A stretch of 64,000 bases of DNA from an uncultured Verrucomicrobiae bacterium (GCA_963788655.1 CAWBHS010000088.1:255580-319579), one strand, 5' to 3'; shown: positions 4,600 through 47,400, counted from the stretch's first letter. Notes: generated by a model from the letters alone, not told the origin. Made by a program: numbers and translations.

Positions 4600-4615
4600 A
4601 TGCCCGGCGGGGTAT
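4600..4615 (-). promoter_or_regulatory. CsoR/CstR-type operator candidate 1 (degenerate)
   Basis: Minus strand ATACCCCGCCGGGCAT overlapping TAGCGT -10-like box; second degenerate copy AGACCCCAAGGGATGA at 4565-4580. Confidence 0.55.
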
Positions 4616-4695
4616 ACCTATCTGAGAGTTTTCTCAGATAGGCGATGCTCAGGCGTGCGGTGTCCGCTTGAGCGGGAGCCGCCTAGGCTCGGCAC

Positions 4696-6579
4696 ATGAC
4701 AGTACGCGGAGGCGGTAGCGGTGGGCGCGGGGGCGTGTCCCGGCTCGACATCGAAGGCCAGAAGGCCATCAACGCGGAGGCACCGCCCATCGCGCACCTG
4801 TGGCGCCGCGTCGGCAGCCTCTTCGCGCCGTACCGCTCGCGTATCGTCGCGACGGGCGCCCTCGTCGTCGTCACCTCCGCCGTCGCCGTTATCCCGCCGC
4901 TGATCGTCAAGCGGGTGTTTGACCGCGCCCTGTTCCCCGCGGACGGCACGGGACCCCACGTCACGCTGCTCGCCGAGCTCGTCGGCATCATGGTGGGCCT
5001 CTACATCGCGAACGCCGGGCTCGGCATCTGGCAGACGTGGCTGACCTCAAACGTCGGCAACCGCGTCTCGGGCGACCTGCGCGTGCTGTTGTTCACCCGG
5101 CTGCAGGCGATGGATCTCGCGTTCTTCACCCGCACCAAGACCGGGGTGATTCAGTCGCGCCTCCAGAACGACGTCGGCGGCGTCTCCGGCGTGCTGACCA
5201 ACACCGTCACGTCGATCGTCGGGAACACCGTCACGGTGGCGGCCTCGCTCGTCGCGATGCTCCTGCTCGACTGGCGCCTGACGCTCATCGCCGTGGTGCT
5301 GCTACCCGCGCTCGTCGTGGTCCAACGGCGTGTCGGACAGGTCAGGGCGCGGATAGCGTCGGCCACACAGGAGTCCCTCTCGGAGCTCACGTCGATCACG
5401 CAAGAGACGCTCAGCGTGTCCGGGATACTCCTGAGCAAATCCTTCAACCGTCAGCGCTTCGAGACCGAGCGTTACTCGGCCGAGAACCGCAACCAGATTT
5501 CGCTCCAGGTGCGCCAGGCGATGAGCGGGCAGTGGTTCTTCGGCGTCGTGCACGTGATCATCGCGAGCGTGCCCGCGGCGATCTACCTCGCGGCCGGTCT
5601 GCTGGCGGCTCGCGGATCCGGCGGAGCGGCACCCGCGATCACGGCGGGCACGATCGTGGCGTTCACCGCGATCCAGGGACGCCTGCTGTTCCCTCTCATG
5701 GGATTGATGCGCGTGGCGCTCGACATCCAGACGTCGCGCGCGCTCTTCGCTCGCATCTTCGAATACCTCGACCTCGAGCCGAGCGTCCGGGACGCCGAGG
5801 ATGCGATCGCCGTCGCGGACGCCCCCGGCCCCGTCGGGCGCGTTGAGTTCGACGCCGTCACCTTCCGCTACCCCGACGCCTCGCCCGAGTCGCGCCCGAC
5901 GCTCGACCGGGTGTCGTTCGTCGCCGAGCCGGGCCAGCACGTCGCGATCGTCGGCCCCAGCGGTGCGGGAAAGACGAGCATGCTGTATCTGGCCCCGCGT
6001 ATGTACGAGGCCTCCTCGGGGCGCGTCCTATTCTCGGGCGCGGACGTCCGCACCCTCACGCACGAGTCCGTGATCGACCACATCGGGATCGTCAGCCAGG
6101 AGACGTACCTGTTTCACGCCTCGATTGCGGAGAACCTGCGCTACGCGAAGCCGGACGCCGCGGACGCGGAGCTGGAGGCGGCCTGCCGCGACGCGAACAT
6201 CCACGACCAGATCATGAGCTTCGAGCGCGGCTACGACACCATCGTGGGAGAACGCGGCTATCGCCTGAGCGGGGGAGAGAAGCAGCGCATTGCGATCGCG
6301 CGCGTCCTCCTCAAGGACCCTCCCGTCCTCCTTCTTGACGAGGCGACCTCGGCTCTCGACACCGTCTCGGAGCAGGTGGTGCAGGCGGCGCTGGACCGCG
6401 CGTCGCGCGGACGGACCACCATCACCGTGGCGCACCGGCTTTCTACGGTGGACGACGCCGACGTCATTCACGTTGTCGAGGCGGGTCGCGTCGTGGAGTC
6501 AGGAACGCACGAGGAACTCCTGGGCGCGAATGGGCTGTACGCCCGGCTCGCCCGTCAGCAACGCGACTCCGTCGGCTAG
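4696..6579 (+). CDS. Fused ABC exporter (TM + ATP-binding), MdlB/MsbA-like
   Basis: N-terminal TM domain, GPSGAGKT, LSGGEKQR, LLLDEATS, VAHRLS. Confidence 0.92.
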   Translation: MTVRGGGSGGRGGVSRLDIEGQKAINAEAPPIAHLWRRVGSLFAPYRSRIVATGALVVVTSAVAVIPPLIVKRVFDRALFPADGTGPHVTLLAELVGIMVGLYIANAGLGIWQTWLTSNVGNRVSGDLRVLLFTRLQAMDLAFFTRTKTGVIQSRLQNDVGGVSGVLTNTVTSIVGNTVTVAASLVAMLLLDWRLTLIAVVLLPALVVVQRRVGQVRARIASATQESLSELTSITQETLSVSGILLSKSFNRQRFETERYSAENRNQISLQVRQAMSGQWFFGVVHVIIASVPAAIYLAAGLLAARGSGGAAPAITAGTIVAFTAIQGRLLFPLMGLMRVALDIQTSRALFARIFEYLDLEPSVRDAEDAIAVADAPGPVGRVEFDAVTFRYPDASPESRPTLDRVSFVAEPGQHVAIVGPSGAGKTSMLYLAPRMYEASSGRVLFSGADVRTLTHESVIDHIGIVSQETYLFHASIAENLRYAKPDAADAELEAACRDANIHDQIMSFERGYDTIVGERGYRLSGGEKQRIAIARVLLKDPPVLLLDEATSALDTVSEQVVQAALDRASRGRTTITVAHRLSTVDDADVIHVVEAGRVVESGTHEELLGANGLYARLARQQRDSVG

Positions 6580-7049
6580 GCGCGCTCTGCTGCCTTCGTG
6601 GCCAATGCGATCGCGATGTCCGTGAGGTCGGCGCCGGAGGTGTCGATCACGGCGATCTGGATGAAGCGGTCGTCGATGACCATCCCGACGAGTTCGCCGT
6701 GGCCAGCAAGGTAGGCGTCTGTCGCTCCCGGGATCGTGATGTCGGTGCTCGATCCGAGTTGGGACTCGATATCCGAGCGCTGGGTCGCGACCTGGGCTCC
6801 GCCGTTGCTGACGAACACCTGCACGATCGGATACCCGCCGCCGACGGGCCGCCAGGCGCACACGGCTTGCGAATCGTTCGACAGGTCGTCGTCGAAATCG
6901 GCGCGCTGCATGGCGACGCCGGTCGTGTCCGCGACGATGGAACGCGACAGGAGGCTGCACGGGTCGGAGAAGGGGTCCGTGCTGCACGCCGTGAGGCTCA
7001 GAGTTCCCGCCAAGGCGAGTAGCGCAATCGTTGGCGTGGTTCTCTTCAC
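6576..7049 (-). CDS. Putative lipoprotein (DUF3558-like)
   Basis: Signal peptide with lipobox LTAC; DPCSLL and CAW motifs; GAAGGAG RBS. Confidence 0.65.
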   Translation of the reverse strand: MKRTTPTIALLALAGTLSLTACSTDPFSDPCSLLSRSIVADTTGVAMQRADFDDDLSNDSQAVCAWRPVGGGYPIVQVFVSNGGAQVATQRSDIESQLGSSTDITIPGATDAYLAGHGELVGMVIDDRFIQIAVIDTSGADLTDIAIALATKAAERA

Positions 7050-7194
7050 GGTTCTTCTCCTTCGTGGGCGTCGAGGTTCGGAAGTCAGCCTAATGCCCCG
7101 CCGAAATGGCGATTACTGCGGTCCTGGTGTCGCATTGCTCACAAGACGCGGCATTTTCCTACCCCGTACCCGTTCGCGTCGCTATCTTGCGAAG

Positions 7195-7854
7195 GTGACA
7201 GTCCTTGGGCAGCTGACCGCGACCATCGCCGACATGGCGGAAAATCGTCGCGTTCTTGTCGCGTTCGACGGGCCCGACGGCTCGGGGAAAACGACGATGG
7301 CGAACCGCGTCGCAGCCGCGCTTCCCGGTCCCGTCGTACGGGCATCGATCGACGGGTTCCACCGCCGCCGCGAGGTTCGGATGGCGCGGGGGATCGATTC
7401 TCCCGAGGGGTACTACCGGGACTCGTTCAACCTCGAGGCGCTCGAGGACGAGCTCCTCGCGCCGTTCTTGTCTGGCAACGGGCTCGTGCGAACCCGCGTG
7501 TTCGACTACCGCACGGATCAGGACGTCGAGGAGGAGTACGAGCACGTACCCCCGTCCGCGACGCTGATCGTCGACGGCGTGTTCCTTCTGCGCCCCGAGC
7601 TTCGGCGCTGGTGGAATCTCGGTGTCTATATCGACGTGCCGGAAGACCTCGCGGTGCAGCGGGCGGTCGAGCGCGACGCGGACCTGTTCGGTGGGCCAGA
7701 GGAAGCCGAGATGAAGTACCGGTTGCGGTACATGCCGGGGCAGGCCCTCTATCGCATGGAGGCGCACCCGCTGGATGCCGCCCTCATCGTCATCGATAAC
7801 ACGGACCCCGATCGCCCCGAGATCGCCAAGTGGGACGTGGCCGCGCACGTCTAG
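7195..7854 (+). CDS. Uridine kinase family P-loop protein
   Basis: FDGPDGSGKTT, ASIDGFH, LIVDGVFL, RYMPGQ; start GTG 7195 or ATG 7234. Confidence 0.8.
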   Translation: MTVLGQLTATIADMAENRRVLVAFDGPDGSGKTTMANRVAAALPGPVVRASIDGFHRRREVRMARGIDSPEGYYRDSFNLEALEDELLAPFLSGNGLVRTRVFDYRTDQDVEEEYEHVPPSATLIVDGVFLLRPELRRWWNLGVYIDVPEDLAVQRAVERDADLFGGPEEAEMKYRLRYMPGQALYRMEAHPLDAALIVIDNTDPDRPEIAKWDVAAHV

Positions 7855-7866
7855 CGCGGGCGCCAC

Positions 7867-9849: not shown

Positions 9850-9914
9850 GGGCCCAGCCTAGGCGAGCGGAGTGCCCTTCGCCCCCGGGGCGCGAGTCCT
9901 GGCAGAATGTGGCC

Positions 9915-17313: not shown

Positions 17314-17982
17314 CTAGATGTAGTACATCGCGGGTTCGCGATCCTGGTTGACGTTCACGGGCGTGGTGCGTCGCTCCGTCGCGAGAGAAGCCCCGGAGTC
17401 AACGGACGACGCCGCCGTGCCTGCCTCGACGACGCCGGGGTGCTCGCGGATCACGGCGGGAATTCCGACCGCAGTGGCGCATTCGGGGACGTCCTTGACG
17501 ACGACGGCGTTCGCGCCGATGCGCGCGTTCGAGCCGATGACGACGGGTCCGAGGACCTTCGCCCCCGCGCCGACGACGACGCGGTCTCCAACGGTCGGGT
17601 GACGCTTGCCCGGCGACATGCTCGTCCCGCCGAGGGTGACGCCGTGGAAGAGCAACACGTCGTCTCCGACGACGGCGGTCTCGCCGATGACGACGCCCAT
17701 GCCGTGGTCAATGAATACGCGACGCCCGATCTGGGCGCCGGGGTGAATCTCGATGCCCGTGCGCGAGCGCGCGTGCTGCGACAGGAGCCGGGCGGGAACG
17801 CGAAGGTGGTGGGTCCACATCCAGTGCGCCGCGCGGTGATACCAGACCGCGTGCACGCCCTGATAGGACCAGACGATGACGAACGTGGAGCGCGCGGCGG
17901 GGTCCCGATCGTGCGCCGCGCGAACGTCCTCGCGCATCCTCGTCACGAGGCCCACGCGTCGGCGTGATGCCTGCTTCGTCAT
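17314..17982 (-). CDS. cysE: Serine O-acetyltransferase
   Basis: [36 protein letters not shown]; downstream of cysK. Confidence 0.95.
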
Positions 17983-18075
17983 GGAAAGCCTCCTCCAGCC
18001 GATGATGGGCGGCCCGGGCGAGTGTAACGCCCGGACCACCCCGTTCCTTCCGTGCCCCCGCGGAAGGACGTCGAA

Positions 18076-19011
18076 TCAGTCCATCAGATCCGCGTACAAC
18101 ACGGACGACAGGTACCGCTCCCCGAACGAGGGGATGATGACGACGATCGTCTTGCCCTTGTTCTCGGGACGCTTCGCGACGATCGCTGCGGCACTCAGCG
18201 CAGCACCAGACGAGATGCCAACGAGCAGGCCCTCCTCCTTCGCGGCGGCACGGGCCGTCTCGATCGCCGTTTCCGAATCGACGTCGATGACCTCGTCGTA
18301 GATCTCCGTGTTGAGGATCTCGGGAATGAAGTTCGCGCCGATGCCCTGGATCTTGTGCGGGCCGGGCTCGCCACCGGTGAGGATCGGCGATTCTGCCGGC
18401 TCGACGGCGACGATCTGGATCGACGGCTTCTTCTTCTTGAGCGCCTCGCCCACGCCGGTAATCGTCCCTCCGGTGCCGATGCCCGCGACGACGATGTCCA
18501 CCTCGCCGTCCGTGTCGTCCCAGATCTCGACGGCCGTCGTCGTCCGGTGAATCTCCGGGTTGGCCTCGTTCGCGAACTGGCGCGCGAGAATCGCACCCGG
18601 ACGCTCCTTCGCGATCTTTTCCGACTCGTCGACCGCTCCCTTCATGCCCGCCGCGCCCGGCGTCAGGATCAGCTCGGCGCCGAACGCCCGGAGAAGAGCG
18701 CGACGCTCCTTGGACATCGTGTCCGGCATCGTGAGGACGACGTTGTAGCCGCGAGCAGCGCCCACGAACGCGAGCGCGATTCCCGTGTTCCCGCTCGTCG
18801 CCTCGACGATGGTCCCGCCGGGCTTGAGCGATCCGTCCTTCTCCGCGGCGTCGATGATCGCGACGCCGATGCGGTCCTTGACCGAGTTCGCGGGGTTGTA
18901 GAACTCGAGCTTGGCGAGCACGGTCGCACCCGCGCCCTTCGTCAGCTTGTTGATGCGCACGAGCGGGGTGTTCCCCACGAGCTTCGTCGCGTCGTCGTAA
19001 ATCTTTCCCAT
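18076..19011 (-). CDS. cysK: Cysteine synthase A
   Basis: [50 protein letters not shown]. Confidence 0.97.
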
Positions 19012-19176
19012 GTCAGTTCCTTCGTTCAGGCGGGGCGGGCGAGGCCGTCCCGTATTCGTCGGTTCGTGGATCGCGCGACAGCGCGGATGCGTCATCCCGC
19101 GAGACGGCGGGGGCGCCGGGGCGAGCACTGGCGTGGCAGAGGTCTGCCGCGTTCCGCGGGTGCGGGTGCCAGCGCT

Positions 19177-24207: not shown

Positions 24208-24223
24208 ATACCCCAAGGGGTAT
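24208..24223 (+). promoter_or_regulatory. CsoR/CstR-type operator 2
   Basis: ATACCCCAAGGGGTAT palindrome overlapping TATAGT -10, upstream of DUF2892 gene. Confidence 0.75.
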
Positions 24224-24247: not shown

Positions 24248-24466
24248 ATGTCTTTCGTACGCTTCATGAGCTCCACCGCAGGGCGCGTAGCCCGCGCCGC
24301 AATCGGCGTCGTCCTGATCGTCCTCGGCATCGTCCTCGGAGGTGGCTGGCTCTGGCTGCTCGCCCCTGGCGCGTTCTTCGTCGCCGTCGGCGCCTTCGAC
24401 GTCTGCGTCTTCGCGCCGCTGTTCAAGATGCCGCTGTCCGGCAAGAAGGTCCGCGCGAGCGTCTAG
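24248..24466 (+). CDS. DUF2892 / YgaP-like small membrane protein
   Basis: FMSSTAGRVARAAIG, two TM, GAFDVCVFAPLF; GAAAGGAG RBS. Confidence 0.8.
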   Translation: MSFVRFMSSTAGRVARAAIGVVLIVLGIVLGGGWLWLLAPGAFFVAVGAFDVCVFAPLFKMPLSGKKVRASV

Positions 24467-30075: not shown

Positions 30076-31392
<1,317 letters not shown>

Positions 31393-31410
31393 GAGGATCG
31401 AGCTGGGAAT

Positions 31411-31430
31411 ACATACCCTAGGGGGTATGT
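31411..31430 (+). promoter_or_regulatory. CsoR/CstR-type operator 3
   Basis: ACATACCCTAGGGGGTATGT palindrome overlapping TATGTT -10, upstream of sqr. Confidence 0.78.
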
Positions 31431-31487
31431 TCATTCCGGGGGAACCGCGCCGATGCGGCACCCTTTGAGCGAGAGAAGGTGATCTCC

Positions 31488-32949
31488 TTGGCCCGCGTTG
31501 TCGTTCTAGGAGCCGGCGTCTCCGGCCACACCGCCGCCCTGTACCTCCGCAAGCGCCTCCCGCGCGCGCACGAGGTCGTGGTCGTCAGCCCCAACTCCCA
31601 GTACAACTGGATTCCCTCCAACATCTGGGTGGGCGTCGGCAAGATGAAGACCGACGACGTCGTCTTCCCGCTCGCTCCCATCTACAAGAAGAAGGGCATC
31701 ACGTTCGTGCAGGCCAAGGCCTTCGCGCTCTGGCCCGAGGGCGACGCCGACGACGCCCAGCCCGCCGTCGAGGTGGAGCACACCTCCGCCGAGCATGCGG
31801 GGGAGACCGAGAAGCTCCGGTACGACTACCTGATCAACGCGACCGGCCCCAAGCTCAACTTCGCGGCCACTCCGGGGCTCGGCCCCGACGACGGCCACAC
31901 GCTGTCCGTCTGCACGCCGTCCCACGCCACCGACGCCTCGGCGAAACTTGACGAACTCATCTCGCAACTGCGCGACGGGGCGAACAAGCGCGTCGTCATC
32001 GGCGTCGGCCATGGGACCTGCACGTGCGAGGGGGCGGCGTTCGAGTACACGTTCAACGTCGAGCACGAGCTGCGGGCCGCGGGAGTGCGCGACCAGGTCG
32101 AGCTCGTGTACCTCACGAACGAGAACGAGCTCGGCGACTTCGGGGTGGGGGGCATGCAGTTCGAGCAGAACGGCTACCGCACCTCGAGTCAGCTCTGGAC
32201 CGAGAGCCTGTTCCGCGAACGCGACGTCAAGGCCATCACCGGTGCGGCCGTCACGACGATCGACCCGGGCGTGATCCACTACGACCAGCTCGACGGCACG
32301 CACAACACGCTCGAGTACGACTTCGCCATGCTGCTCCCGCCGTTCCGTGGGGCGGACTGGAAGGCGTTCGACCGCGCGGGCGCGGACATCACCGACACGG
32401 TGTTCGCGCCCGAGCGGGTTCCTCAAGGTGGACGCCGACTACACCAAGAAGCCCTACGAGGAGTGGAGCGCCAAGGACTGGCCCCGCACCTACCAGAACC
32501 CGACCTACCCGAACGTGTTCGCCGTCGGCATCGCGTTCGCGCCACCCCACGCCATCTCCAAGCCGCGCGCGACGCCCGACGGCCTCGCCGTTGCCCCGAG
32601 CCCGCCGCGAACCGGAATGCCGTCCGGGACCATGGGCAAGGTCGTCGCCATGAGCGTGGCCGACATGATCGTGAAGGGTGCGGACCAGCCCACCCACAGC
32701 GCGTCGATGGCCGAGATGGCGGCGGCGTGCGTCGCGTCGGCCGGAACGGGGCTGCGGTCGGGGACGGCCGCCGCGATGACGATGAGTCCCGTGGTTCCCG
32801 ACTGGGAGAAGTATCCCGAGACGGGCCGCAACCTCAAGCAGACGTTCGGCGAGCTCGGCCTCGCGGGGCACTGGGTGAAGCGGATACTGCACACCCTGTT
32901 CATCTACAAGGCCAAGGCCAAGGCCGGCTGGACCTTCATCCCCGAGTGA
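31488..32949 (+). CDS. sqr: Sulfide:quinone oxidoreductase (one frameshift at CCC 32409-32411, likely sequencing error)
   Basis: VLGAGVSG FAD motif, WIPSNIW, SVCTP, CTCEGAAFEY, PPRTG, ACVASAG; removing one C joins VFAP-SGFLKVDA. Confidence 0.85.
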
Positions 32950-32972: not shown

Positions 32973-33119
32973 ATGGACAACACGAACGAGCGGATCGCGC
33001 AGGCACCGCTACCCACGCGCGGCGAGCTCCGTCGGCGTCGCGGGCTGGTGCGGCAGCTCATCCGCTTCACGCGCATCAACTGGACGATGTGGAGGCTGGC
33101 GCGCGCCACGCACCACTAG
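32973..33119 (+). CDS. 48-aa basic amphipathic protein directly downstream of sqr
   Basis: GGAGGGAG RBS; MDNTNERIAQAPLPTRGELRRRRGLVRQLIRFTRINWTMWRLARATHH. Confidence 0.7.
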   Translation: MDNTNERIAQAPLPTRGELRRRRGLVRQLIRFTRINWTMWRLARATHH

Positions 33120-36241: not shown

Positions 36242-37216
36242 GTGACGCCGACGCCGGAATGGCACGAGTTATCTGACACCTCCCTCGGCATTCTCAACGG
36301 CATCATCCATCTGGTCCCGTTCCTCGTCATCGTCGCCGCGATGATCGGTATCGGGGCGTACTTCTCCCGGCGAACGCGGCACGGAAGCGAGCTCGCGAAG
36401 CAGCTGGGCTTCGAGCTCGGTTCGGCCGCGCTGCACACGAACGTGGACGCCTTCCCGCTCAACGTCGAGGGCGGCCTCTTCGGCGAATCGCAGATGTCGG
36501 CGAACGGATGGTGGCGAGGTCGCCGGGCCGAGAGCGTCCTGCTGTATCCGGGGGCGAAGGCGAGCATGGTCGCGGAGTTCCGGGTGGAGCTCGTCGAGAT
36601 CGACGAATACCTTCCGCGCGTGGAGTTCCTGTCGCGCCGTCGAGACTCCATCGTGCCCACGGGGGGCGGCAACGTCGTCGACGTCGAGTCGGACGACTTC
36701 AACCAAGCCTTCGACGTCATCGCCTCCAATCCGGCCTACGCGCATGCCGTCCTGCAACCGCGCATGATGGAACGGCTCCTTCGCGCCGACGTCGGCGACG
36801 CCTCCGTTACCGTCTGCGGGAACCGCGTCTTCTGCTGGCGTCCGGCGATCGAGGGCGTCTTGGGCGCTCGCGCGCGCCTCGACCTCATCAGCGATGTCGC
36901 CGACCTTCTCCCGCCGTTCCTCGTGGAGTTGTACGGCGAGAGTCCCCTGCCGAGCGCCGCGGACGCGACCGACGCGTCGGCTCCGGCCTCGCGGACAACC
37001 AGGAATTGGATGGCGTGGGCGGGCTGGGCCTGCCTGGTCACGCTTGTTCTGTGGCCCGTCGGGATATTGTTCGGCCACCTTGCGCTCCGCGCCGCTCGGG
37101 CGGGGACGGCGACCAACGCCCGGAGCGCGCGCGTGCTGCTCTACGTGGGGTACCTCGTGCCGGCGCTCGCGGTCCTCCTGTTCGCCTGCGCCCCGACGAC
37201 CGCTACGGTCGCCTAG
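36242..37216 (+). CDS. Membrane protein (DUF3137-like core plus C-terminal DUF4190-like TM pair); start uncertain
   Basis: N-terminal [32 protein letters not shown]. Confidence 0.65.
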
Positions 37217-39917
37217 CCCTCGGCGGGGATGAGCTCCGCGCCGCGCGTCGTGATGACGCCGTCGCCGCCGTCGGGCACCGGCACGATCGCGAGGTCGCGC
37301 ACGCGGCCCGCGGCCGTGAGGTCCCGCTCGGCGGCCGCGACGAACGCGACCTGCGCCTCGGGCACGAGCAGTTCGACCGACGCGATCTCCGTCCGCTGGG
37401 ACACCTTCGCCTCGGACTTGATCTTGCGTAGCGCCGCCAGCGCGCCGCCCGCGGCCTCGAGCAGCGCAGCGCCGCCCGCGACCACCTCGGAATCGCTCCC
37501 GGCGGCCGCCGCGCGGAGCGGTCCGGCCTCCGGCCACGTCGAGCGGTGCACGGAACCCTCGCGCCACCACGACCAGACCTCCTCGGTCGCGAACGGCAGC
37601 ACCGGCGCGAACAGCAGCAGGAACGTCTCGAGGGCGACGGTGAGCGCCGCGCGGGCCGACGCGGGCCTCGGGAGACGCCTCTGCGTACGGGTCCACCGGC
37701 GTGCCGGGCGCGGACCCCGCGTAGGCGCGGTCCTTGATCAGCTCGAGGTAGTCGTCGGTGAACGTCCAGAAGAACCGCTCCACCGCCTCGAGCGCGCGCG
37801 TGTGGTCGTACGCCTCGTAGGCGGCGGTCGCGCACGTCCACGACGTCGGCCAGCGCGTTCAGCAGCGCCCGGTCGAGGTCCTCGGTCACGTCGGCGCTCG
37901 TCACGTGAGCGGCCGCCTTCAGCCCCGCGGCGAGAGACTCGTTGGCCGCGCCCTCGATCCCGGTCACGCCGAGCACGAACTTCGAGGCGTTCAGCACCTT
38001 GGTCGCGAGGCGTCGCCCGATCTTCATCTGGCCCGTGTCGAACGCCGCGTCCATGCCAAGCCGCGCCGACGCCGCCCAGTACCGCACGGCGTCGGGCCCG
38101 TGCTCCTGGAGCAGCCCCAGCGGGGTGACGACGTTGCCCTTGGACTTGGACATCTTCTTGCGGTCGGGGTCGAGGATCCAGCCGGAGATCGCCGCGTGCT
38201 TCCACGGCAGCGAGTCGTGCTCCAGGTGCGAACGGACGACGGTGGAGAACAGCCACGTACGAATGATGTCCTGGCCCTGGGGGCGCAGGTCCATGGGGAA
38301 GGTCGCGGCGAAAAGGGCGGGGTCGGTGCGCCACCCGCACGCGATCTGCGGGGTGAGCGACGACGTCGCCCACGTGTCCATGATGTCCTTCTCGCCGATG
38401 AAGCCGCCGGGCACGCCGCGCTTCGACTCGTCGAAGCCGGGCGCAGCATCGGACGACGGGTCGACGGGCAGCGCAGTCCTCGCCCGGGAGGATGGGGGAG
38501 TCCCACACGGGGTTGCCAGCTGACGTCGAGCGGGTACCACACGGGGATGGGAACGCCGAAGAAGCGCTGGCGCGAGATGAGCCAGTCGCCTTGGAGGCCC
38601 GTTGACCCAGTTCTCGTAGCGCACGCGCATGAAGCCCGGCTCGAATGCGAGTTCGGCGCCTCGCTGCACGAGCGTCGCGTTAAGCGCCGTGTCCTTGCCG
38701 CCGTTCGCGATGTACCACTGGCGGGTCGTGATGATCTCGAGCGGGCTTGTCGCCCTTCTCGAAGAACTTCACGGGGTGCGTGACGGGCTTGGGTTCCTCG
38801 GTCATCGCGCCAGACTCGCGCAGCAGCTCGACGATGCGCTTCTGGGCGCTGAACACGGTCAGTCCCGCGAGTTCGGCGTACGCGGCGAGGCCGGCCTCGG
38901 TCTCGATGCCCGTGGGCGGCTCGGCCAGCACGCGCCCGTCCCAGCCGAGCATCGGGCGCGTCTCGCAGTTGGAGCTCGCGCCACCATGTCACGTCGGTGG
39001 TGTCGCCGAAGGTGCAGATCATCGCGATGCCGGAGCCCTTGTCTGGGCGCGGCGAGGTAGTGCGCCACCACCGGCACCTCAACCTCGAATAGCGGCGTGC
39101 GCACGGTGCGTGCCGAAGAGCGGCTTGTACCGCTCGTCGTCGGGGTGCGCGACGAGGGCGACGCACGCGGGGAGTAGCTCGGGTCGGGTGGTCTCGATGA
39201 AGACGTCGCCTGAGCCGTCGGCGCGCGGGAACGCGAGCCGATGGTACGCGCCAGGCATGTCCCGGTCCTCCAAGTTCAGCCTGCGCGACGGCGGTGCGGA
39301 ACGTCACGTCCCACAGCGTCGGCGCCTCGGCCTGATACGCCTCGCCGCGCGCGAGGTTCCTGAGGAACGCCTGCTGCGCGACGCCCTGCGCCTCGGGGGA
39401 GATGGTCTGATAGGTGCGCGACCAGTCGACGCTCAGCCCCAGGTGGCGCCAGAGCGACTCGAACTGCTTCTCGTCCTCCTCGGTAAGGCGCTCGCAGAGC
39501 TCCACGAAGTTGCGCCGTGAGATCGGCATCTGGTCTGCGGCCTTGGTGGATTTCCCTTCCCCTCCCGAATGCGGGGGCTCGAATCCCTCGACGTAGGGAA
39601 GCGACGGGTCGCACCTCACGCCGAAGTAGTTCTGCACGCGTCGCTCGGTGGGCAGGCCGTTGTCGTCCCAGCCCATCGGGTAGAAGACGTTCATGCCGCG
39701 CATGCGCCGGTACCGGGCGATGAGGTCCGTGTGGGTGTAGCTGAAGACGTGGCCGACGTGGAGGGACCCGGAGACGGTGGGGGGAGGCGTGTCGATGGAG
39801 AAGTTGTTCTCGCGGGGTTGCTCGGGGTCAAAGCGGTAGGTGCCAGCGTGCCTCCCAGGTGGCGTTCCAGCGGTCGTCGAGGCCGTCGACCGTTGCTTTC
39901 TCTGGGATGCGCGTCAT
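37213..39917 (-). CDS. valS: Valine--tRNA ligase (multiple frameshifts, most likely sequence errors)
   Basis: [58 protein letters not shown] distributed over several frames. Confidence 0.93.
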
Positions 39918-39967: not shown

Positions 39968-41767
39968 CTACGTCTCGGCGTCGGTCGGGTGTTCCTTCGG
40001 GTCGCCTGTGGGATCGTCGGTCGTTTCATCCGAAGTCCGTTCGGAGGATGAAGACGTCTGGAGAGTTCCGGTAGCGCGCCTGCGCCACCAGCGCACGCCG
40101 TAACCTCCGGCTCCGGCCAGGACAACGACGCCTGCGATCGCCAAGTAGAGCAAGCTGACGTTTCCAGAATCACCGGAGTCGGAAGCGCTCGGTGAAGAAT
40201 TCACGGAAGCCGAGGGGGAGGTCCCGGTTGTGGGTTGTATGCCGGTGGAGGTCGACGGCTGTGGGCTTGGGTCAATCGTCACGGTCGGAACCGGCGTGGC
40301 AGTTCCCGGCGTGGCAGTTCCCGGCGTTGTCGGGAGTTCCTCGCCGATGTACAGGGTCCTGTAACTCGCGTTGCCGAACACCCACGTGGGCATGCTGTAG
40401 CCGGTGTTGTCGTTCTGCGGGGAGATGAACACGATGGGCGAGTCACCGCCGGGACCGAAGGGGTTCTGCGACGCGTCATTCGTCTTCGGTTCGGGGCCTT
40501 CCATGGTGACCGTTTGGAGAGGATTGCCGTCGAAGGCCGCGTCGAGGATGTAGATCACGGAGTCGGGGATGGTGACCGACGTGAGGGCGTTGTCGCGGAA
40601 CGCCCAGGACTCGATATGGGTCACTGAGTCGGGGATGGTGACCGACGTGAGCGAGTTCCCGTAGAACGCCTGGCTGTCGATGAGCGTGACGGAGTCGGGG
40701 ATGGTGACCGAGGTGAGGAGGTTGTTGTCGAATCCGCCGAGGGAGGTGACGGAGTCGGGGATGGTCACCGACGTGAGGGAGTTGTGGGCGAATGCCTCGG
40801 GCTTGATGACGGCGACGGAGTCTCCGAGGGTGACCGAGGTGAGAGAGTTCCCTTCGAAGGCGGACTGACCGATGCTGATCACGGAGTCGGGGATCGTCAC
40901 CGAGGTGAGGAGGTTGTCGGAGAACGCGCTTTCGCCGATCTTGGTAACGGAGCCGGGGATGATGACCGACGTGAGCGAATTGTCGCTGAACCCGCTGAGG
41001 GACGTGACCGAGTCGGGGATGACGACCGACGTAAGGGAGTTGCCGGAGAACGCCCTGACTTCGATGGTGCTGACGGAGTCGGGGATGGTGACCGAGGTGA
41101 GGGAATTGTGGGAGAACGCCCCGCTACGGATGGTGGTGACGGAGTCGGGAATCGTCACCGAGGTAAGGGAGTTATAGGCGAACGTGGCCTTGTGAACGAT
41201 GGTGACGGACTCGGGGATGACGACTGCCGTGAGAGAGTTCCCATTGAAGGCGTAGTCGCCGATGACGTTAACGGATCCGGGGATGGTGACCGAAGTGAGG
41301 GAGTTATTGGCGAAGGCGGAATCGCCGATGACGGTGACGGAATCGGGGATGACGACTGAAGCAAGCGCGTTGCTCTTGAAGGCTAAGTTGTCAATCGTCG
41401 TGACGGAGTCGGGGATCGTGACCGAGGTCAGGGAGTTGAGGTAGAACGCGCGTCGACCGATCTTGGTGACGGAGTCGGGAATCGTGACCGAGGTGAGGGA
41501 ACAGCTGTTGAACGAATCGGAGCCGATGACCGTGACATCGTACTCAGTGGAGTTGATGGTGACGGTGGAGGGGATGACAGGGGTCGTGCTGGTTCCGACG
41601 AAGTCCGTGATCTGGGCGCCAGCCGCAACGTTGGCTGGGTCGTACCGGTAGGTGAAGTCGCCGATCGTCCTGGTAGTCGACTCCGCCGACGCCGACGCTG
41701 TCGAAATAGCCGCGACGAGTGCCGTCACGACCGCAATGGCGAACAATCGGGGTCGAATTCGTTTCAC
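39968..41767 (-). CDS. BspA-type leucine-rich repeat surface protein
   Basis: Signal peptide, 15 repeats of NSLTSVTIPDSVTxIxxxAF, Thr/Pro/Ser linker, C-terminal TM and basic stop-transfer. Confidence 0.9.
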   Translation of the reverse strand: MKRIRPRLFAIAVVTALVAAISTASASAESTTRTIGDFTYRYDPANVAAGAQITDFVGTSTTPVIPSTVTINSTEYDVTVIGSDSFNSCSLTSVTIPDSVTKIGRRAFYLNSLTSVTIPDSVTTIDNLAFKSNALASVVIPDSVTVIGDSAFANNSLTSVTIPGSVNVIGDYAFNGNSLTAVVIPESVTIVHKATFAYNSLTSVTIPDSVTTIRSGAFSHNSLTSVTIPDSVSTIEVRAFSGNSLTSVVIPDSVTSLSGFSDNSLTSVIIPGSVTKIGESAFSDNLLTSVTIPDSVISIGQSAFEGNSLTSVTLGDSVAVIKPEAFAHNSLTSVTIPDSVTSLGGFDNNLLTSVTIPDSVTLIDSQAFYGNSLTSVTIPDSVTHIESWAFRDNALTSVTIPDSVIYILDAAFDGNPLQTVTMEGPEPKTNDASQNPFGPGGDSPIVFISPQNDNTGYSMPTWVFGNASYRTLYIGEELPTTPGTATPGTATPVPTVTIDPSPQPSTSTGIQPTTGTSPSASVNSSPSASDSGDSGNVSLLYLAIAGVVVLAGAGGYGVRWWRRRATGTLQTSSSSERTSDETTDDPTGDPKEHPTDAET

Positions 41768-42003: not shown

Positions 42004-42213
42004 CCTGTACCCCCGAATACACGAGGGACATTCTCGGCGCCAGAGGGGGGAGGGGCTAGGGCCTCCGCGCTATGACGACATATCGCTTCTTTCGACCCCC
42101 ATCACTTCTACCCGGGGCCGCACAACTTTGTGCTGTTGCGCTTACCTCAGGCTAATCCTCTTGACGCCGTCGCGCACGGGGAAGGATGTGGCGTTCGTCA
42201 CGGACTGGTGGGG

Positions 42214-42972
42214 TTACAAACCAATGTGCGCTTCGGCCACCATGGGCCCTGTTGGGGCTGTTGAACCACCCGGTGGTTCCATCGTCACGTAGATGTCGGT
42301 CACGCCGTTCATGTCGCCCTTCATCAGCACCATGTAGGTGCCGTCGTGCTCGGGCATGAAGGCGGGGCCGGCCTCGGAGGTGCCGTCGGCGTGGGACATC
42401 CACACCTGGTACTCCTTCCCTGGCGAGGGCATGGGGGCCTCGTCTCCCATGAGCACGGCGCCGCCGTAGGTCTGGCTCATGATGAAGGACGACTGGCCGA
42501 GGGGGACGGTCATGGTGTGGGCGTCCTCTGCGGAGATGATCCGCATCGCCTGCTCGTGCGCGGCGAGGGTGCCGTTGTCGGATTTGCCGGTGAGGAATCC
42601 GCCGATGCCGATGCCGAGGGCGACGACGAGGACGGCGGCCGCTGCCGCTCCAAGCCAGGCCACGCCGGGCGTCCAACGACGGGAGGTGCGCGGTTCGTCG
42701 GCGTCGGCGACGGGAGCGCGGCGAGGGGCCTTCTGCTGCGGCGTACGGGCGGCGGTAGCGAGAACGGTGGCGCGCATGGTGGCGGGCGCGCGCCCGGTAT
42801 CGCCGACGCCGGAGAGGGCCCCGGAGGCGCCGAGGAGTGACGCGGTCTCGCGGAGCGAGGCGACCTGGTCGCGGCAGGCGGAGCAGCCGTCGAGGTGGGT
42901 GGCGAAGGCGGCGCGCTCGTCCGGGTCGAGGGCGTCGATCGCGTAGGCGGCGGCGAGGTCGTGGAGCGTCAT
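42214..42972 (-). CDS. rskA: Anti-sigma-K factor RskA-like
   Basis: HDLAAAYAIDAL, HLDGCSAC (ZAS), TM, YQVW, VTMEPPGGS.APT. Confidence 0.88.
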   Translation of the reverse strand: MTLHDLAAAYAIDALDPDERAAFATHLDGCSACRDQVASLRETASLLGASGALSGVGDTGRAPATMRATVLATAARTPQQKAPRRAPVADADEPRTSRRWTPGVAWLGAAAAAVLVVALGIGIGGFLTGKSDNGTLAAHEQAMRIISAEDAHTMTVPLGQSSFIMSQTYGGAVLMGDEAPMPSPGKEYQVWMSHADGTSEAGPAFMPEHDGTYMVLMKGDMNGVTDIYVTMEPPGGSTAPTGPMVAEAHIGL

Positions 42973-43679
42973 GGCGCCACCTCCAGAAGCTCGCGCATCT
43001 TCAGGATGCCGTCGCGTAGGCGAGCCTTCGCGGTTCCCAGGGGAATGCCCAGCTCGCCCGCAACCTCGCGGTGCGTGAGCCCGCGCCAGTAGGCGAGGGA
43101 GAGCGCCTGGCGCTGGAGGTCGCTGAGGGCGGCGAGGGCGCGGCGCACGCGGGCCGCCTCCCATTCGCCTTGAAGCATGTCGATGACGTGCCCTGGTCCG
43201 TCTTCGGCTGGGGCGACGGTCGGGGTTGCCGCGTGCGCCGCGTGGGCGCGGGCGGAGTGTGCCTCCTCGCGCCGTACGCGGTCCACGGCGCGACGGTGCG
43301 CGATGGTGAGGATCCATGCCCGCGCGGATCCGCGCTGAGACTCGTAGCGGGGGGCGGCGCTCCATACCTCGAGTAGCGCCTCCTGGGCGGCGTCCTCGGC
43401 GAGGGCAGGGTCGCGCACCACCCTTAAGGCGAGGGCGTAGACCTGGTCGGCCACGGCGTCGTAGAGGCGTTCGTATGCCGCGGTCGATCCGCGCGCGACC
43501 TCGTGAAGGAGGTCGCCGAGCGGGGTGTCGAAGGACGGAAGAGAGGCGGGTGACGCGGAACGTCTCGTCGCCGGGGGATTGGCGCCGATCGCCTCCCACG
43601 CGTCAGTGGGCTGCTCGTCTGACGCGGTCGAAACCGAGCGCAGACGTCGGGTTGAGCCCACTCCGCCTCCCTCCGTCAT
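42969..43679 (-). CDS. sigK: ECF sigma factor SigK-like (start uncertain)
   Basis: AEDAAQEALLEVW, WILTIAHRRAVDRVR, LAYWRGLTHREVA..PLGTAKARLRDG; ATGA coupled to rskA. Confidence 0.88.
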   Translation of the reverse strand: MTEGGGVGSTRRLRSVSTASDEQPTDAWEAIGANPPATRRSASPASLPSFDTPLGDLLHEVARGSTAAYERLYDAVADQVYALALRVVRDPALAEDAAQEALLEVWSAAPRYESQRGSARAWILTIAHRRAVDRVRREEAHSARAHAAHAATPTVAPAEDGPGHVIDMLQGEWEAARVRRALAALSDLQRQALSLAYWRGLTHREVAGELGIPLGTAKARLRDGILKMRELLEVAP

Positions 43680-43699
43680 TCGTAGTAACGCCGGGACGG

Positions 43700-43969
43700 C
43701 TAGTTGTCTTCCATCATGGAGTCGTCGCCCATCATCGAGTCGTCCGTCATAGCCGGGGTGGGCGTCATGGTGTCGTCGTGCATCATGGAGTCGGCCGACA
43801 TGGCCGGGGTGGGCGTCATGGTGTCGTCGTGCATCATGGTGTCCTCCGACATGGCCGGGGTGGGCGTCATCTTCGCGTCGTCCGCAGTTCCTGTACGGCC
43901 GCAGCCGGCGAGGACGGCTGCCGTTGCGAGGGCTGTGACGGTCGCCGCTGCGGTGCGGGAGATCTTCAT
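43700..43969 (-). CDS. Met/Asp-rich repeat lipoprotein (89 aa)
   Basis: GAGGAAG RBS, lipobox LAGC, three 17-aa (51-bp) repeats MTPTPAMSxDxMMHDDT. Confidence 0.8.
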   Translation of the reverse strand: MKISRTAAATVTALATAAVLAGCGRTGTADDAKMTPTPAMSEDTMMHDDTMTPTPAMSADSMMHDDTMTPTPAMTDDSMMGDDSMMEDN

Positions 43970-44020
43970 GGTCTTCCTCTCGGTTGTGCTTCACCGCCGT
44001 GTGGCGGCCACTCGTGGGGT

Positions 44021-45793
44021 CTATCCGAACGTGAAGGCAAACGCCTCCACGCCAGGAGAGAACGTCAGGGTCAGCTGGTCCTCGATCGGGTCGCCGCTGT
44101 ACAGCGTGTACAGCGTCGGCGCGCCGGAGACGTTCACGACGTTGCTCCATCCCGGATCACCTTCTCTCGTCACCGTGACGGTGCCTTCGCCTCCCAGGAC
44201 CAGGTACACGTTTGCCGCATAGAAGTGGTAGCGCAGCCGCGCGTCTGCACCCGCGACCGCCGATTCGGAGCCCACCGTCCACGTGCCGCCGAGCGAGAAC
44301 TCGTTTTGTGCGGGCGCCGTGACGAGCGTGTAGGTGTACGCCGCGTCCCGGGTGCCCTCGTTGTTCGCCAGCGCATTCAGGCGGCTGTAGCCGACGTAGG
44401 TCTCCGGTGAGCGCCCGGAGGTGAGGTTGGCCGGGTCGATCGCGACGGTGGACGTCACGGGGGCGTCGAGGAGCTGCTGGATCAGCTTCTCCGTCTCCTT
44501 GTAGGCGCCCTCGCCGTAGTGGACCTGCCGCACCATGCCGTCTTTGTCGATCAGGTAGTGCGCGGGCCAGTACCGCTGGTGCCACGCACGCCACGTGGTG
44601 AAGTCGTTGTCGAGCGCGACGGGGTAGTGGATGTTGAAGCGCTGCGTTGCGTCCTCCACGTTGGAGCGGACGTGCTCGAAGGCGAACTCGGGCGAGTGCA
44701 CGCCGATCACGACGAACCCGTCGTCCTTGTACTTGTCGTACCAGGCGGTGATGTACGGCAGCGTGCGCTGGCAGTTGATGCACGAGTACGTCCAGAAGTC
44801 GACGAGCACGACCTTGCCCCGCAGATCCTCGAGGCTGATGGGCGCGTCGCCGGGGGTGTTGATCCACGATTCGATGCCGCTGATGTCGGCGGCCGGTCCG
44901 CAGTTGTGGAGCGTGTCGAGCGGGGCGTCCGCGCACTGGTCGAAGGACATCGCATCGCCGACGGCGGGGCCGGCGGGTTCGCGTCCGGCGAGGGCGTCGA
45001 GCTGGTTCTGGACGGTCTGGTTGTTCTCGATGGCGTTCTGCGCGTCGCCAAGGACGGGCGGCACGATGCGCTGCAGCGGCTCGAACACGTTGGTCGCGAT
45101 GAGGACGGCGGTGGCGACCAGGATGGCGCCGGAGATCCTGCGGAACAGGCCGAGGTTGTTGCGGACCGCCTTGACGCGGCGCACGATCGACTCGCCCGCG
45201 ACGGCGAACGCGAGCAGCGGGATCGCGACGCCGAGGCTGAACGCGAGGGTGAGGATCACGAGGCCGACGCTGAGCCCTGCCGACGTGGCGAGCGTGGTGA
45301 TGGCGGTGAGGATGGGCCCGGCGCACGGGACGAAGACGAGCCCGAGGGCCAGTCCCGTGACGAACCCGCTTCCGCCCTGCTTGAGACGGGGTAGCCGCGT
45401 TGACTGGAAGGGACGCTCGATGATGTGCCCGATGCCGGGGATCAGGAGGCCAAGGCCCACGATGATCAGCACGACGATCCCGGTCCACCGCAGCACGTCC
45501 TGGCGGAGGTGAAGGGCGCTGAGGAGTGAGACGCCCACCAGGGTGAACACCGCGAAGGAGGTGATGAGGCCGGCGACCACGAGGATGGGGCGGCGAAGCG
45601 AGGCAGCCTTTCCGGCGGGCAGGGCGTCCGCTGGCACTGCGGGAGCGGCGCCGCCGCCGACGCCGACCGCCATGGGGATTCGGGGTGCTGTCGGCACGGC
45701 GCTCGCGAGGATCGCGGGCAGTACGGGAAGGACGCACGGCGAGATGGCGGTGATGAGGCCGGCGACGATCCCGGCCAGAGCGAGGGTAAGCAT
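44021..45793 (-). CDS. dipZ: DipZ-like CcdA-thioredoxin fusion protein
   Basis: SPCVLP and FVPCAGP CcdA cysteines, WTYSCINC thioredoxin, HSPEFAFE, SPETYVG, C-terminal AFTFG. Confidence 0.92.
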   Translation of the reverse strand: MLTLALAGIVAGLITAISPCVLPVLPAILASAVPTAPRIPMAVGVGGGAAPAVPADALPAGKAASLRRPILVVAGLITSFAVFTLVGVSLLSALHLRQDVLRWTGIVVLIIVGLGLLIPGIGHIIERPFQSTRLPRLKQGGSGFVTGLALGLVFVPCAGPILTAITTLATSAGLSVGLVILTLAFSLGVAIPLLAFAVAGESIVRRVKAVRNNLGLFRRISGAILVATAVLIATNVFEPLQRIVPPVLGDAQNAIENNQTVQNQLDALAGREPAGPAVGDAMSFDQCADAPLDTLHNCGPAADISGIESWINTPGDAPISLEDLRGKVVLVDFWTYSCINCQRTLPYITAWYDKYKDDGFVVIGVHSPEFAFEHVRSNVEDATQRFNIHYPVALDNDFTTWRAWHQRYWPAHYLIDKDGMVRQVHYGEGAYKETEKLIQQLLDAPVTSTVAIDPANLTSGRSPETYVGYSRLNALANNEGTRDAAYTYTLVTAPAQNEFSLGGTWTVGSESAVAGADARLRYHFYAANVYLVLGGEGTVTVTREGDPGWSNVVNVSGAPTLYTLYSGDPIEDQLTLTFSPGVEAFAFTFG

Positions 45794-45801
45794 GATGACT
45801 A

Positions 45802-45828
45802 TTCGTTCGACCGCGCGCGGGCGGATGG
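45802..45828 (-). promoter_or_regulatory. SigK-type promoter for dipZ operon
   Basis: CCATCC-N16-ACGAA ending 8 nt before the dipZ ATG; resembles mycobacterial SigK consensus CCATCC..CGAA. Confidence 0.65.
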
Positions 45829-45848
45829 GTGCGCGTAGCGTTTCGCCT

Positions 45849-46253
45849 ATGGAGAGCAAGCGTTGGAACGTGGTGGGTTGGATCGTGCTCGTGGCCGTCG
45901 TCGCGGTGATTGCCGCGGTCGCGGTGTTGGCGTACAACGAGATTCGGCCGAGGCCCGCCGATGCGACGGGGTACGGGGTGGGCGACGATCCGAACGTCGT
46001 GTTCGTGGCGATCTCGTTCAACCAGGGCGCCGAGATCGTGCCGACGAAGATCCTGAGCGAGGACGCGACGACGGTGGACCTGGGCGTGTGGGTCAAGAAT
46101 CCGTTGCCGTGGTCGCGGGACGAGGCCACGACGGCGTTCGGCTGGGCGTGGGTGAGGTTGGACGAGCCGCTCGGCGACCGAGCGGTCACCCTTTTCGGGG
46201 AGCCGCTCGAGCGCGTGTCCGGTGCCGGCCAGCCCAAGATCACGAATCAATGA
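45849..46253 (+). CDS. Hypothetical membrane-anchored protein
   Basis: N-terminal TM, VRLDEPLGDRAV C-terminal motif; TAGCGT 7 nt before ATG. Confidence 0.65.
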   Translation: MESKRWNVVGWIVLVAVVAVIAAVAVLAYNEIRPRPADATGYGVGDDPNVVFVAISFNQGAEIVPTKILSEDATTVDLGVWVKNPLPWSRDEATTAFGWAWVRLDEPLGDRAVTLFGEPLERVSGAGQPKITNQ

Positions 46254-46345
46254 CGTAGCGGTTACGATTCGCGAAACTCCGGTGTTGTGGCGCGATAAAA
46301 CACCTTCGGTAGGCGTTGGATAAGTACTACCGGAGGGGAGTGCCC

Positions 46346-46456
46346 ATGAAAGGCACCATCGTCACACTGATCGCCACGCTCGTGGCTGTGAGTCTGGCCG
46401 CAGTCGCGACCACGTCCGTCGTTGTCGCGGCGGAACGCGCCGACGCGCACGCCTGA
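46346..46456 (+). CDS. 36-aa hydrophobic small protein (not in ORF track)
   Basis: GGAGGGGAG RBS; MKGTIVTLIATLVAVSLAAVATTSVVVAAERADAHA. Confidence 0.55.
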   Translation: MKGTIVTLIATLVAVSLAAVATTSVVVAAERADAHA

Positions 46457-46511
46457 CCCCTCGCTGTCCCGTTTCTCGTGACTAGACACGGCGTCGTCTT
46501 CGCGCTATATT

Positions 46512-46525
46512 GTTAGTTGGCTAAC
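46512..46525. promoter_or_regulatory. MarR operator candidate
   Basis: GTTAG-TTGG-CTAAC next to TATATT, upstream of marR-like gene. Confidence 0.55.
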
Positions 46526-46558
46526 GAACGGTTGGCCGAGTAATAGAAGGAGGTCCCC

Positions 46559-47164
46559 ATGCGGACCGAAGACAACATCGAGGGCCACGGCCCTCACGGC
46601 GGCGAGGAGAACCTCGTCCGCACCATGGCGCGCACGGCTCAGTCGATGCGGCGCCACCTAGAGAAGACGATCGGCGACGTGCCGGGCGGCATGAGCGCGT
46701 GGTGGGTGCTTCGTCACCTGCACAACGCGGGGCCGCAGACCCAGGCGGACATGGCGCGCAGCGTCGGTGTCGCGGGCTCGACCCTCACGCGTCGTCTCGA
46801 GCAGATGGAGGCCGACGGCCTCATTACCCGTACCGCGGATCCCGACGACGGGCGGCGCATCATCGTCGCCCTGAGCGAGGCGGGCGAGGCCATGAGGGGT
46901 GGGCAGCGCGAGCGCGCCGACTCCGAGGCGGACAAGCTGATCGCGGGCATCGCGCCCGAGGACATCGAGGCCTTCGAGAGAATGGTCGCGCGGATTCGCG
47001 CGAACCTCATCGAGATGGGTACCGACCCCGACGCGCGGGGCGGCGGGCACCGGATGCGTAGCGGATTCGGACCGGGCGGCGGCCGCGGCAGAGGTATGGA
47101 CGGCGAGCGCGGCGAGGGCCGCGGTGGCGGCCGCGGCAGGGGCCGCGGCGCTCACGCGGACTAG
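46559..47164 (+). CDS. MarR family regulator with RGG-rich C-terminal tail
   Basis: TQADMARSVGV..TLTRRLEQMEADGLITR..DPDDGRR; AAGGAGG RBS. Confidence 0.9.
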   Translation: MRTEDNIEGHGPHGGEENLVRTMARTAQSMRRHLEKTIGDVPGGMSAWWVLRHLHNAGPQTQADMARSVGVAGSTLTRRLEQMEADGLITRTADPDDGRRIIVALSEAGEAMRGGQRERADSEADKLIAGIAPEDIEAFERMVARIRANLIEMGTDPDARGGGHRMRSGFGPGGGRGRGMDGERGEGRGGGRGRGRGAHAD

Positions 47165-47334
47165 CGGCGGAACAGGGTCGCGAGCAGCGAGGGCGGAAGG
47201 GCCGCCTGCTTCTGCTCGGCCGAGCACCTGCAGCGCTGGTGCACCGGGACGTGTCCCAGGACTCGCTCGACGTGCTGACCGCAGCCGGTGTAGCTGGGCT
47301 TGCCGCAGGCGCGGCAGGTAGCGGGACTGCACAT
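47161..47334 (-). CDS. 57-aa Cys-rich protein
   Basis: MCSPATCRACGKPSYTGCGQHVERVLGHVPVHQRCRC...; GGAG RBS; operator upstream. Confidence 0.8.
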   Translation of the reverse strand: MCSPATCRACGKPSYTGCGQHVERVLGHVPVHQRCRCSAEQKQAALPPSLLATLFRR

Positions 47335-47384
47335 ATTTCGATCTCCATTCACGGCAGGAGTAGGGCGTTGGCGACGACGCTAGC

Positions 47385-47400
47385 ATACCCCACGGGGTAT
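47385..47400 (-). promoter_or_regulatory. CsoR/CstR-type operator 4
   Basis: ATACCCCACGGGGTAT palindrome; on minus strand overlaps TATGCT -10 facing the Cys-rich gene. Confidence 0.75.

Follow-up and report, generated by a model that had tools for sequence, protein, structure and literature searches.

Four palindromic boxes and the DNA that carries them

The last 64 kb of contig C88, part of an 8.96-Mb Verrucomicrobiota assembly of 59.6% G+C, were analysed as one stretch, which is called the window here and in which positions are counted from the first letter. The subject is a 16-bp inverted repeat, ATACCC-N4-GGGTAT, that lies ahead of sqr, the gene for sulfide:quinone oxidoreductase (SQR), and also ahead of a gene for a DUF2892 protein, a gene for a small Cys-rich protein and a cytochrome b operon. 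An earlier note on this DNA had placed the same palindrome in four intergenic regions and had read the first copy on the minus strand. All four copies were recovered, three of them perfect and one with a single mismatch, and the minus-strand reading of box 1 was found to be correct. The boxes are as follows.

4600-4615: box 1, ATGCCCGGCGGGGTAT as read on the plus strand, one mismatch; located where the cytochrome b operon and the ABC exporter gene diverge
24208-24223: box 2, ATACCCCAAGGGGTAT, perfect; TATAGT overlaps its 3' end; 25 bp upstream of the DUF2892 gene start
31413-31428: box 3, ATACCCTAGGGGGTAT, perfect; TATGTT overlaps it; 60 bp upstream of the sqr start
47385-47400: box 4, ATACCCCACGGGGTAT, perfect; TATGCT overlaps it on the minus strand; 51 bp upstream of the start of the Cys-rich protein gene

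When up to one mismatch was allowed, the repeat matched the 64-kb window four times, as compared to 0.02 matches expected. A check against shuffled sequence bore out this enrichment, since the mean was 0.02 and none of 100 shuffles reached four matches. The four boxes are not due to chance. A looser pattern, ATACC-N6-GGTAT, returned the identical four sites and no extra one, and a version of the box with N5 spacing had zero matches in the window. A fifth site at 40378, with two mismatches, was dropped; it is inside a coding region. All four boxes are intergenic and located 25-64 bp ahead of a start codon, box 1 being 64 bp from the ATG at 4536 (minus strand) and 80 bp from the ATG at 4696 (plus strand). 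Their form, an inverted repeat with a C-tract and a G-tract, is the CsoR/CstR-family operator form published for ScCsoR (PMC7533328).

The earlier note had also claimed that each box overlaps a TANNNT -10 element facing the downstream gene. This part of the claim stood for boxes 2-4, in which the final TAT of the box opens the hexamer (TATAGT, TATGTT and TATGCT) on the strand of the downstream gene. At box 1, the closest TANNNT (TAGCGT) begins two bases further on than in the other boxes. Among 54 boxes upstream of sqr in relatives, described below, the hexamer starting at the last three box bases ends in T in 26 and in A in 18 more.

The origin of the window affects how the rest of the assembly can be used. 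The G+C content of C88 rises from ~59% to ~68% near 220-221.5 kb, 35 kb before the window starts, and remains high until the contig end. Genes for trigger factor, two ClpP and ClpX are present in the window in the usual actinobacterial order. The ClpX is 85-88% identical to ClpX of four Demequina species, and a second clpX, 60% identical, was found on another contig of the same assembly. Thus, C88 is probably a chimeric contig, most likely the result of a misassembly in which ~100 kb from a Demequina-like actinobacterium were joined to a foreign Verrucomicrobiota assembly. The genome-wide scan for further sites and for a regulator, which the earlier note had suggested, yielded nothing usable because most of the assembly belongs to an organism of another phylum, with 59.6% G+C. 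For the same reason, it is as expected that the only three perfect boxes in the whole 8.96 Mb are boxes 2, 3 and 4. The earlier note had seen no CsoR-family gene in the window. We confirmed that PF02583 is absent there and found it absent from the rest of the assembly as well, a result that is uninformative because the window comes from another organism than the assembly bulk.

Genes at the boxes and their counterparts in relatives

The genes next to the boxes, together with those adjoining them or divergent, are listed here.

2766-3695, minus: third gene of the cytochrome b operon; 309-amino-acid protein of no named family, a single membrane helix at either terminus
3692-4363, minus: four-helix b-type cytochrome of 223 amino acids (Cytochrom_B_N_2, Pfam E 3.9e-14)
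4360-4536, minus: first gene of the operon; 58-amino-acid membrane protein, AAGGAG ribosome-binding site
4696-6579, plus: ATP-binding cassette (ABC) exporter gene, divergent from the cytochrome b operon across box 1
24248-24466, plus: 72-amino-acid YgaP-like membrane protein (DUF2892; PF11127, 29.3 bits versus a cut-off of 25.3)
31488-32949, plus: sqr, in two frames, with one extra base near 32408
32974-33119, plus: very basic open reading frame (ORF) of 48 amino acids, directly 3' of sqr, GGAGG ribosome-binding site
47161-47334, minus: 57-amino-acid Cys-rich protein; seven Cys in all, with a CxxC...CxxH core and additional Cys that are conserved

For sqr, 80 actinobacterial loci were surveyed, and 78 of them include DNA ahead of the gene (in L056 and L058 the match extends past the end of the contig). 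In 54 of the 78, the 300 bp ahead of sqr contain a box, perfect in 38 and with one mismatch in 16, and mostly 33-95 bp before the start. Thus, the proposal that sqr is a boxed target agrees with a pattern conserved across Actinomycetota, and the link between sqr and the box holds across the phylum. The 48-amino-acid ORF, which matches no Pfam or NCBIfam family, has homologues directly 3' of sqr in Demequina loci L001, L003, L006 and L104.

The window copy of sqr keeps one frame up to about residue 305 and changes there to the +1 frame, and both halves are 82-86% identical to intact 485-amino-acid Demequina orthologs. The best solved match of the Demequina ortholog is Aquifex SQR (3HYV, E 4.7e-41), with Cys aligned on Cys at three places, which we take to be the redox-active residues. 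Public sequencing runs cover only small shares of the window (at most 0.19). In one of them, X1, contig sequence is identical to the window over 31300-31449, the region of box 3, and equals the window over 32385-32542 except that one base is omitted at 32408 (depth 2.6, one contig). With that base gone the ortholog frame is restored, so that an assembly error is the probable cause of the frameshift; since X1 may itself be the source sample, it does not confirm this independently. The gene for a class-I aminoacyl-tRNA synthetase (37203-39703) is likewise divided among three frames, which together with the sqr frameshift suggests an error-prone assembly rather than pseudogenes.

The 57-amino-acid Cys-rich protein has no Pfam or NCBIfam match and belongs to a family of at least 337 clusters, all labelled 'hypothetical' and without Pfam domains. 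In an 83-member alignment, C2, C7, C10, C18, H21 and C35 are invariant. The family is present in 117 of 301 sampled Actinomycetes genomes, often in 2-3 copies, and also in genomes of 1.3-1.5 Mb. A boxed homologue was found in each of four Demequina genomes, with the box 46-82 bp from the start and, as in the window, with the gene 10-20 kb from sqr. The Cys-rich gene lies within 6 kb of sqr in 25 of the 80 sqr loci, and in L007, L008, L019 and L021 it stands between the box and sqr. The earlier note's inclusion of this gene in the regulon was therefore upheld, by the box in 4/4 Demequina genomes and by its recurrence as a conserved target across Actinomycetota.

Neighbourhoods were counted at the 30 best-scoring loci from the 301-genome class sample; these include close kin, so the counts overstate independence. 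A box was present within 400 bp upstream of the Cys-rich gene in 11 of the 30, and a box-like site within ~1.5 kb in 15. Neighbouring genes encode fusions of CoA-disulfide reductase (CoADR) with rhodanese (11 loci), TehB/TPMT-like methyltransferases (9), PF02583 proteins (5) and thioredoxin (4), and more rarely rhodanese (2), DUF302 (2), DUF2892 (1), metallo-beta-lactamase (1) and SQR (1), with at least one reactive-sulfur neighbour at 17 of the 30 loci. An order that recurs is CoADR-rhodanese, Cys-rich protein, thioredoxin, methyltransferase. The gene for the TehB/TPMT-like S-adenosylmethionine-dependent methyltransferase was observed beside the Cys-rich gene in L141, L142, L145, L150, L151, L155, L157, L161 and L164, and its recurrence may point to methylation of thiols or sulfide within the module.

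In an AlphaFold model of the Cys-rich protein, of medium confidence (predicted local distance difference test score, pLDDT, 74.8), a beta-hairpin and a helix surround the CxxC...CxxH core. A Foldseek search of the model against the PDB gave nothing at E <= 0.001, its weak rows including two small zinc fingers, and VIA-align against 48,161 chains returned one row (Z 2.1) and no significant structural match. The nearest Atlas cluster is auto-named 'Metallothionein family protein' (score 0.96), an automatic label that no Pfam or NCBIfam match accompanies. From its gene context, we infer a small zinc-finger-like, metal-binding thiol protein that would accept, carry or buffer sulfane sulfur. More specifically, it is an almost evenly balanced proposition that the protein is one of a family of zinc-finger-like thiol proteins, unnamed but widespread in actinobacteria, that are dedicated to reactive-sulfur homeostasis, and that it acts as a CstR-controlled sulfane-sulfur carrier or buffer between SQR, the CoA-persulfide reductase-rhodanese fusions and thioredoxin. 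Literature searches found no paper dealing with this Cys-rich protein. On the other side of box 4, a gene for a 109-amino-acid membrane protein (47478-47807; no Pfam or NCBIfam family) was considered as the true target and left uncounted, as Demequina has a GNAT gene at that side instead.

For the DUF2892 gene, a box within 100 bp upstream was found in 7 of 11 homologous loci, that is, in four of six matches in sqr loci and three of five genome matches, so that this gene, too, was borne out as a boxed target. The subtype is rare, and with the window protein as query it was detected in 5 of 301 genomes. No paper joining CstR, persulfide and DUF2892 was found in a literature search.

In the cytochrome b operon, ATGA start/stop overlaps join the genes for the 58-amino-acid protein, the cytochrome b and the 309-amino-acid protein. 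The cytochrome has weak matches in NCBIfam, all under the cut-offs, and its two partners match no Pfam or NCBIfam family; the Atlas neighbours of the 309-amino-acid protein are all unnamed actinobacterial clusters. Beside cytochrome b in related loci, a homologue of the 58-amino-acid protein precedes it in 6 of 8 and a homologue of the 309-amino-acid protein is present in 8 of 8, and of the 151 genomes from the order, 8 carry the three genes as a unit.

Two further gene groups in the window are unboxed. A cysK-cysE-like pair, recognized by domain content only (a PALP pyridoxal-phosphate-dependent enzyme domain and a hexapeptide transferase domain), lies in 17314-19128 on the minus strand. A DsbD-thioredoxin fusion is encoded beside a sigma/anti-sigma pair at 42214-46243, near the Cys-rich gene.

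The putative regulator and competing explanations

A PF02583 gene was found within 6 kb in 25 of the 80 actinobacterial sqr loci. At the copper-ligand position, all 25 of these sqr-linked proteins have a residue other than His (S, G, N or A), and 24 of them have both Cys. Each of the four Demequina genomes has exactly one PF02583 gene, and its product, for which the best solved relative is CstR of S. pneumoniae (7MQ1, E 1.9e-14), reads C-G-C, with the Gly aligned to the His of Geobacillus CsoR. A C-H-C protein was encountered just once, as a second paralogue in an Actinotalea genome (L081). Thus, the predicted PF02583 proteins of relatives, both in Demequina and next to sqr, carry the x-C-x-C signature of two Cys and no His. 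In passages of PMC8643695, the proteins of cluster 3 of a sequence similarity network (SSN) have this motif and are regarded as candidate actinomycete persulfide sensors, and the CstR-type sensors of actinomycetes are termed 'largely uncharacterized'. A supplement table of the same source lists a Demequina mangrovi protein in SSN cluster 3 together with Rv1766. Among the titles that a literature search listed for Rv1766, none dealt with its regulon.

A box was present beside Demequina cstR in three of the four genomes. In the fourth (G001, L085 ~1795-1815, upstream of cstR), the autoregulatory box reads ATACCC-N5-GGGTAT; with five central bases there, a scan with fixed spacing misses some operators. 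Perfect boxes numbered 5-7 per Demequina genome (n = 4), as compared to 0-1 for a reversed control pattern. Among the genes flanking these boxes, the sulfur enzymes are SQR, thioredoxin, a secreted rhodanese and a CoA-disulfide-reductase/rhodanese fusion divergent from cstR, and one 865-amino-acid fusion adds TusA and DsrE domains to the latter architecture. Other flanking genes encode a SLAC1/TehA-type channel (divergent from an AdhE-like gene), a 159-amino-acid membrane protein and the Cys-rich protein. Judged by these flanking genes, the Demequina boxes appear to mark a reactive-sulfur regulon. ScCsoR, as described in passages of PMC7533328, binds ATACC-N6-GGTAT at the promoters of pdo and a rhodanese gene and is released by polysulfide. 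Consequently, the earlier note's assignment of the palindrome to a CsoR-family repressor of the persulfide-sensing, CstR-like kind is in agreement with the sqr-linked regulators that lack His, with the sulfur targets and with the match to the ScCsoR operator.

We consider it probable that a CstR-type repressor of actinomycete cluster 3, a CsoR-family tetramer with two Cys and without the copper-ligand His, uses the four palindromes as its operators; its gene would lie elsewhere in the Demequina-like genome. By analogy with ScCsoR and CstR, the repressor would, when reactive sulfur is absent, occupy the box over the -10 region and block transcription. Upon sulfide entry, SQR and other enzymes would produce persulfides and polysulfides. 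These would bridge the two cysteines of the repressor, which would then leave the DNA and allow the genes to be expressed. The firm targets under this predicted control are sqr with the 48-amino-acid ORF, the DUF2892 membrane protein and the 57-amino-acid Cys-rich protein.

The same palindrome would also fit a copper regulon, in which a Cu(I)-sensing repressor of the CsoR/RicR type acts on the boxes and the Cys-rich protein would be a metallothionein. A case of this kind is the RicR regulon of Mycobacterium tuberculosis, which includes a small Cys-rich metallothionein. The Atlas auto-name (0.96) points in this direction, and the operators of CsoR, RicR and CstR are described as similar in passages of PMC7533328. 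However, the His ligand is absent from 25/25 sqr-linked CsoR-family proteins, and the Demequina genomes hold the non-His type only. Moreover, the genes flanking the boxes encode sulfur enzymes, with no copA/copZ or other copper gene among those scanned with Pfam in the window and in Demequina (a scan of the flanks only, not of whole genomes), and the Cys-rich family adjoins persulfide reductases, thioredoxins, rhodaneses and cstR. Control by copper is thus very unlikely. Even more improbable is that the boxes are bound by a protein outside the CsoR family, such as a sulfur sensor of the ArsR/BigR or MarR type. This would be consistent with the lack of a CsoR-family gene in the window, with a MarR gene (46559-47164) that ends beside the Cys-rich gene and with the reported sensing of sulfane sulfur by MarR proteins (PMC11211675). 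In contrast, the box co-occurs with CsoR-family genes in 25/80 sqr loci, it stands beside cstR itself in Demequina, and its sequence is that of the operator demonstrated experimentally for ScCsoR (PMC7533328, in its passages on binding).

Several observations weigh against the CstR-type explanation. The regulator gene is found neither in the window nor in the assembly, and its paralogue is deduced from relatives whose proteins are 82-88% identical; the contigs of the RNA run considered are only 90-95% alike and come from relatives of this organism. The role given to the Cys-rich protein draws on gene neighbourhood and on a medium-confidence model without a structural match. Of its 30 best loci, which include close kin and are not independent events, 19 have no box within 400 bp, so the family is not always under box control. 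Finally, box 1 has one mismatch, and no box was present at the cytochrome b unit in any of the 8 genome loci (up to two mismatches, within 1.5 kb) or in any of 80 metagenome cytochrome b loci (up to one mismatch, 278 kb in total). These data on box 1 fit the alternative that the site has decayed or is half good by chance, or that it serves the ABC exporter at 4696-6579, and that the cytochrome b unit is unrelated to sulfide. The -10-like hexamer, offset by two bases relative to boxes 2-4, fits this as well, as do the neighbours of the unit elsewhere, which are mutually unrelated and show no common theme. In addition, a perfect 26-bp palindrome (11-nt arms, 4-nt spacer) that is unique in the window lies at 4617-4642, one base beyond box 1. 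It could be the real operator here, and it may serve another regulator of the ABC exporter or of the cytochrome b operon. We also looked for a second palindrome shared by the surroundings of boxes 1 and 4 and rejected it, as the 26-bp core gave 10 matches versus 21 expected by chance. On the other hand, a site with at most one mismatch is expected 0.02 times per window, yet this one falls in a 159-bp divergent promoter region with its perfect half-site facing the cytochrome b operon, and no homologue of the ABC exporter was found beside a box among the relatives' loci collected. On balance, we place this alternative for box 1 just on the probable side. Thus, the earlier note's inclusion of the cytochrome b module in the regulon is possible insofar as box 1 lies upstream and is unlikely to be there by chance, and it is not supported as general membership, with 0/88 related loci boxed. 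It is possible, if somewhat doubtful, that this lineage alone has brought its cytochrome b operon under box control, and only recently, by way of the imperfect box 1. Going further, and with lower likelihood, recruitment of the unit by CstR in this lineage would let the cell re-oxidise SQR quinol while sulfide poisons the usual oxidases.

Relation to known systems and significance

By all features examined, the window system appears to belong to the persulfide-responsive repression known from actinomycete CstR and ScCsoR. In the passages of PMC7533328 on ScCsoR (SCO0620) of Streptomyces coelicolor, this regulator is likewise a two-Cys actinomycete CsoR-family repressor that is autoregulated and acts on ATACC-N6-GGTAT at or over the -10 region. 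Its release by polysulfide was shown experimentally, whereas release in the window system is predicted. According to the same source, ScCsoR controls pdo-tauE and a rhodanese gene beside its own gene. In contrast, the window boxes span 43 kb at a distance from the regulator gene, and their targets are sqr, the DUF2892 protein and the small Cys-rich protein. No gene for a persulfide dioxygenase or TauE was found among the window ORFs scanned with Pfam.

The CstR regulon of Staphylococcus aureus includes sqr. The CstR proteins of S. aureus, Enterococcus faecalis and Streptococcus (passages of PMC8643695; 7MQ1) are similar to the putative regulator in their x-C-x-C motif, operator form and sulfide-detoxification regulon, which in E. 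faecalis comprises a CoA persulfide reductase with rhodaneses. However, they fall into SSN clusters 4 and 10 and control a single operon beside cstR, whereas the actinomycete proteins belong to cluster 3, and a Cys-rich or DUF2892 partner is absent from what the passages of PMC8643695 describe for these systems. The RicR and CsoR copper regulons of M. tuberculosis share with the window a near-identical palindrome and, like it, are dispersed, but their regulators have a C-H-C copper site and control copper genes, in contrast to the window-linked regulators without His and their sulfur targets.

Both the regulator class and the 16-bp operator have already been described for actinomycetes in passages of PMC7533328 and PMC8643695. 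Thus, the mechanism is known, and the novelty lies in the composition, with sqr and two conserved families of unknown role in one dispersed regulon. Among actinomycete CstR-type sensors, only the Streptomyces circuit has been examined experimentally so far. The window and its relatives yield an operator rule for sqr that applies phylum-wide, together with a short list of conserved targets. They also provide a first functional lead for two families without an assigned role, the stand-alone DUF2892 proteins and the Cys-rich protein, which is present in about four of ten sampled Actinomycetes genomes, including tiny freshwater ones.

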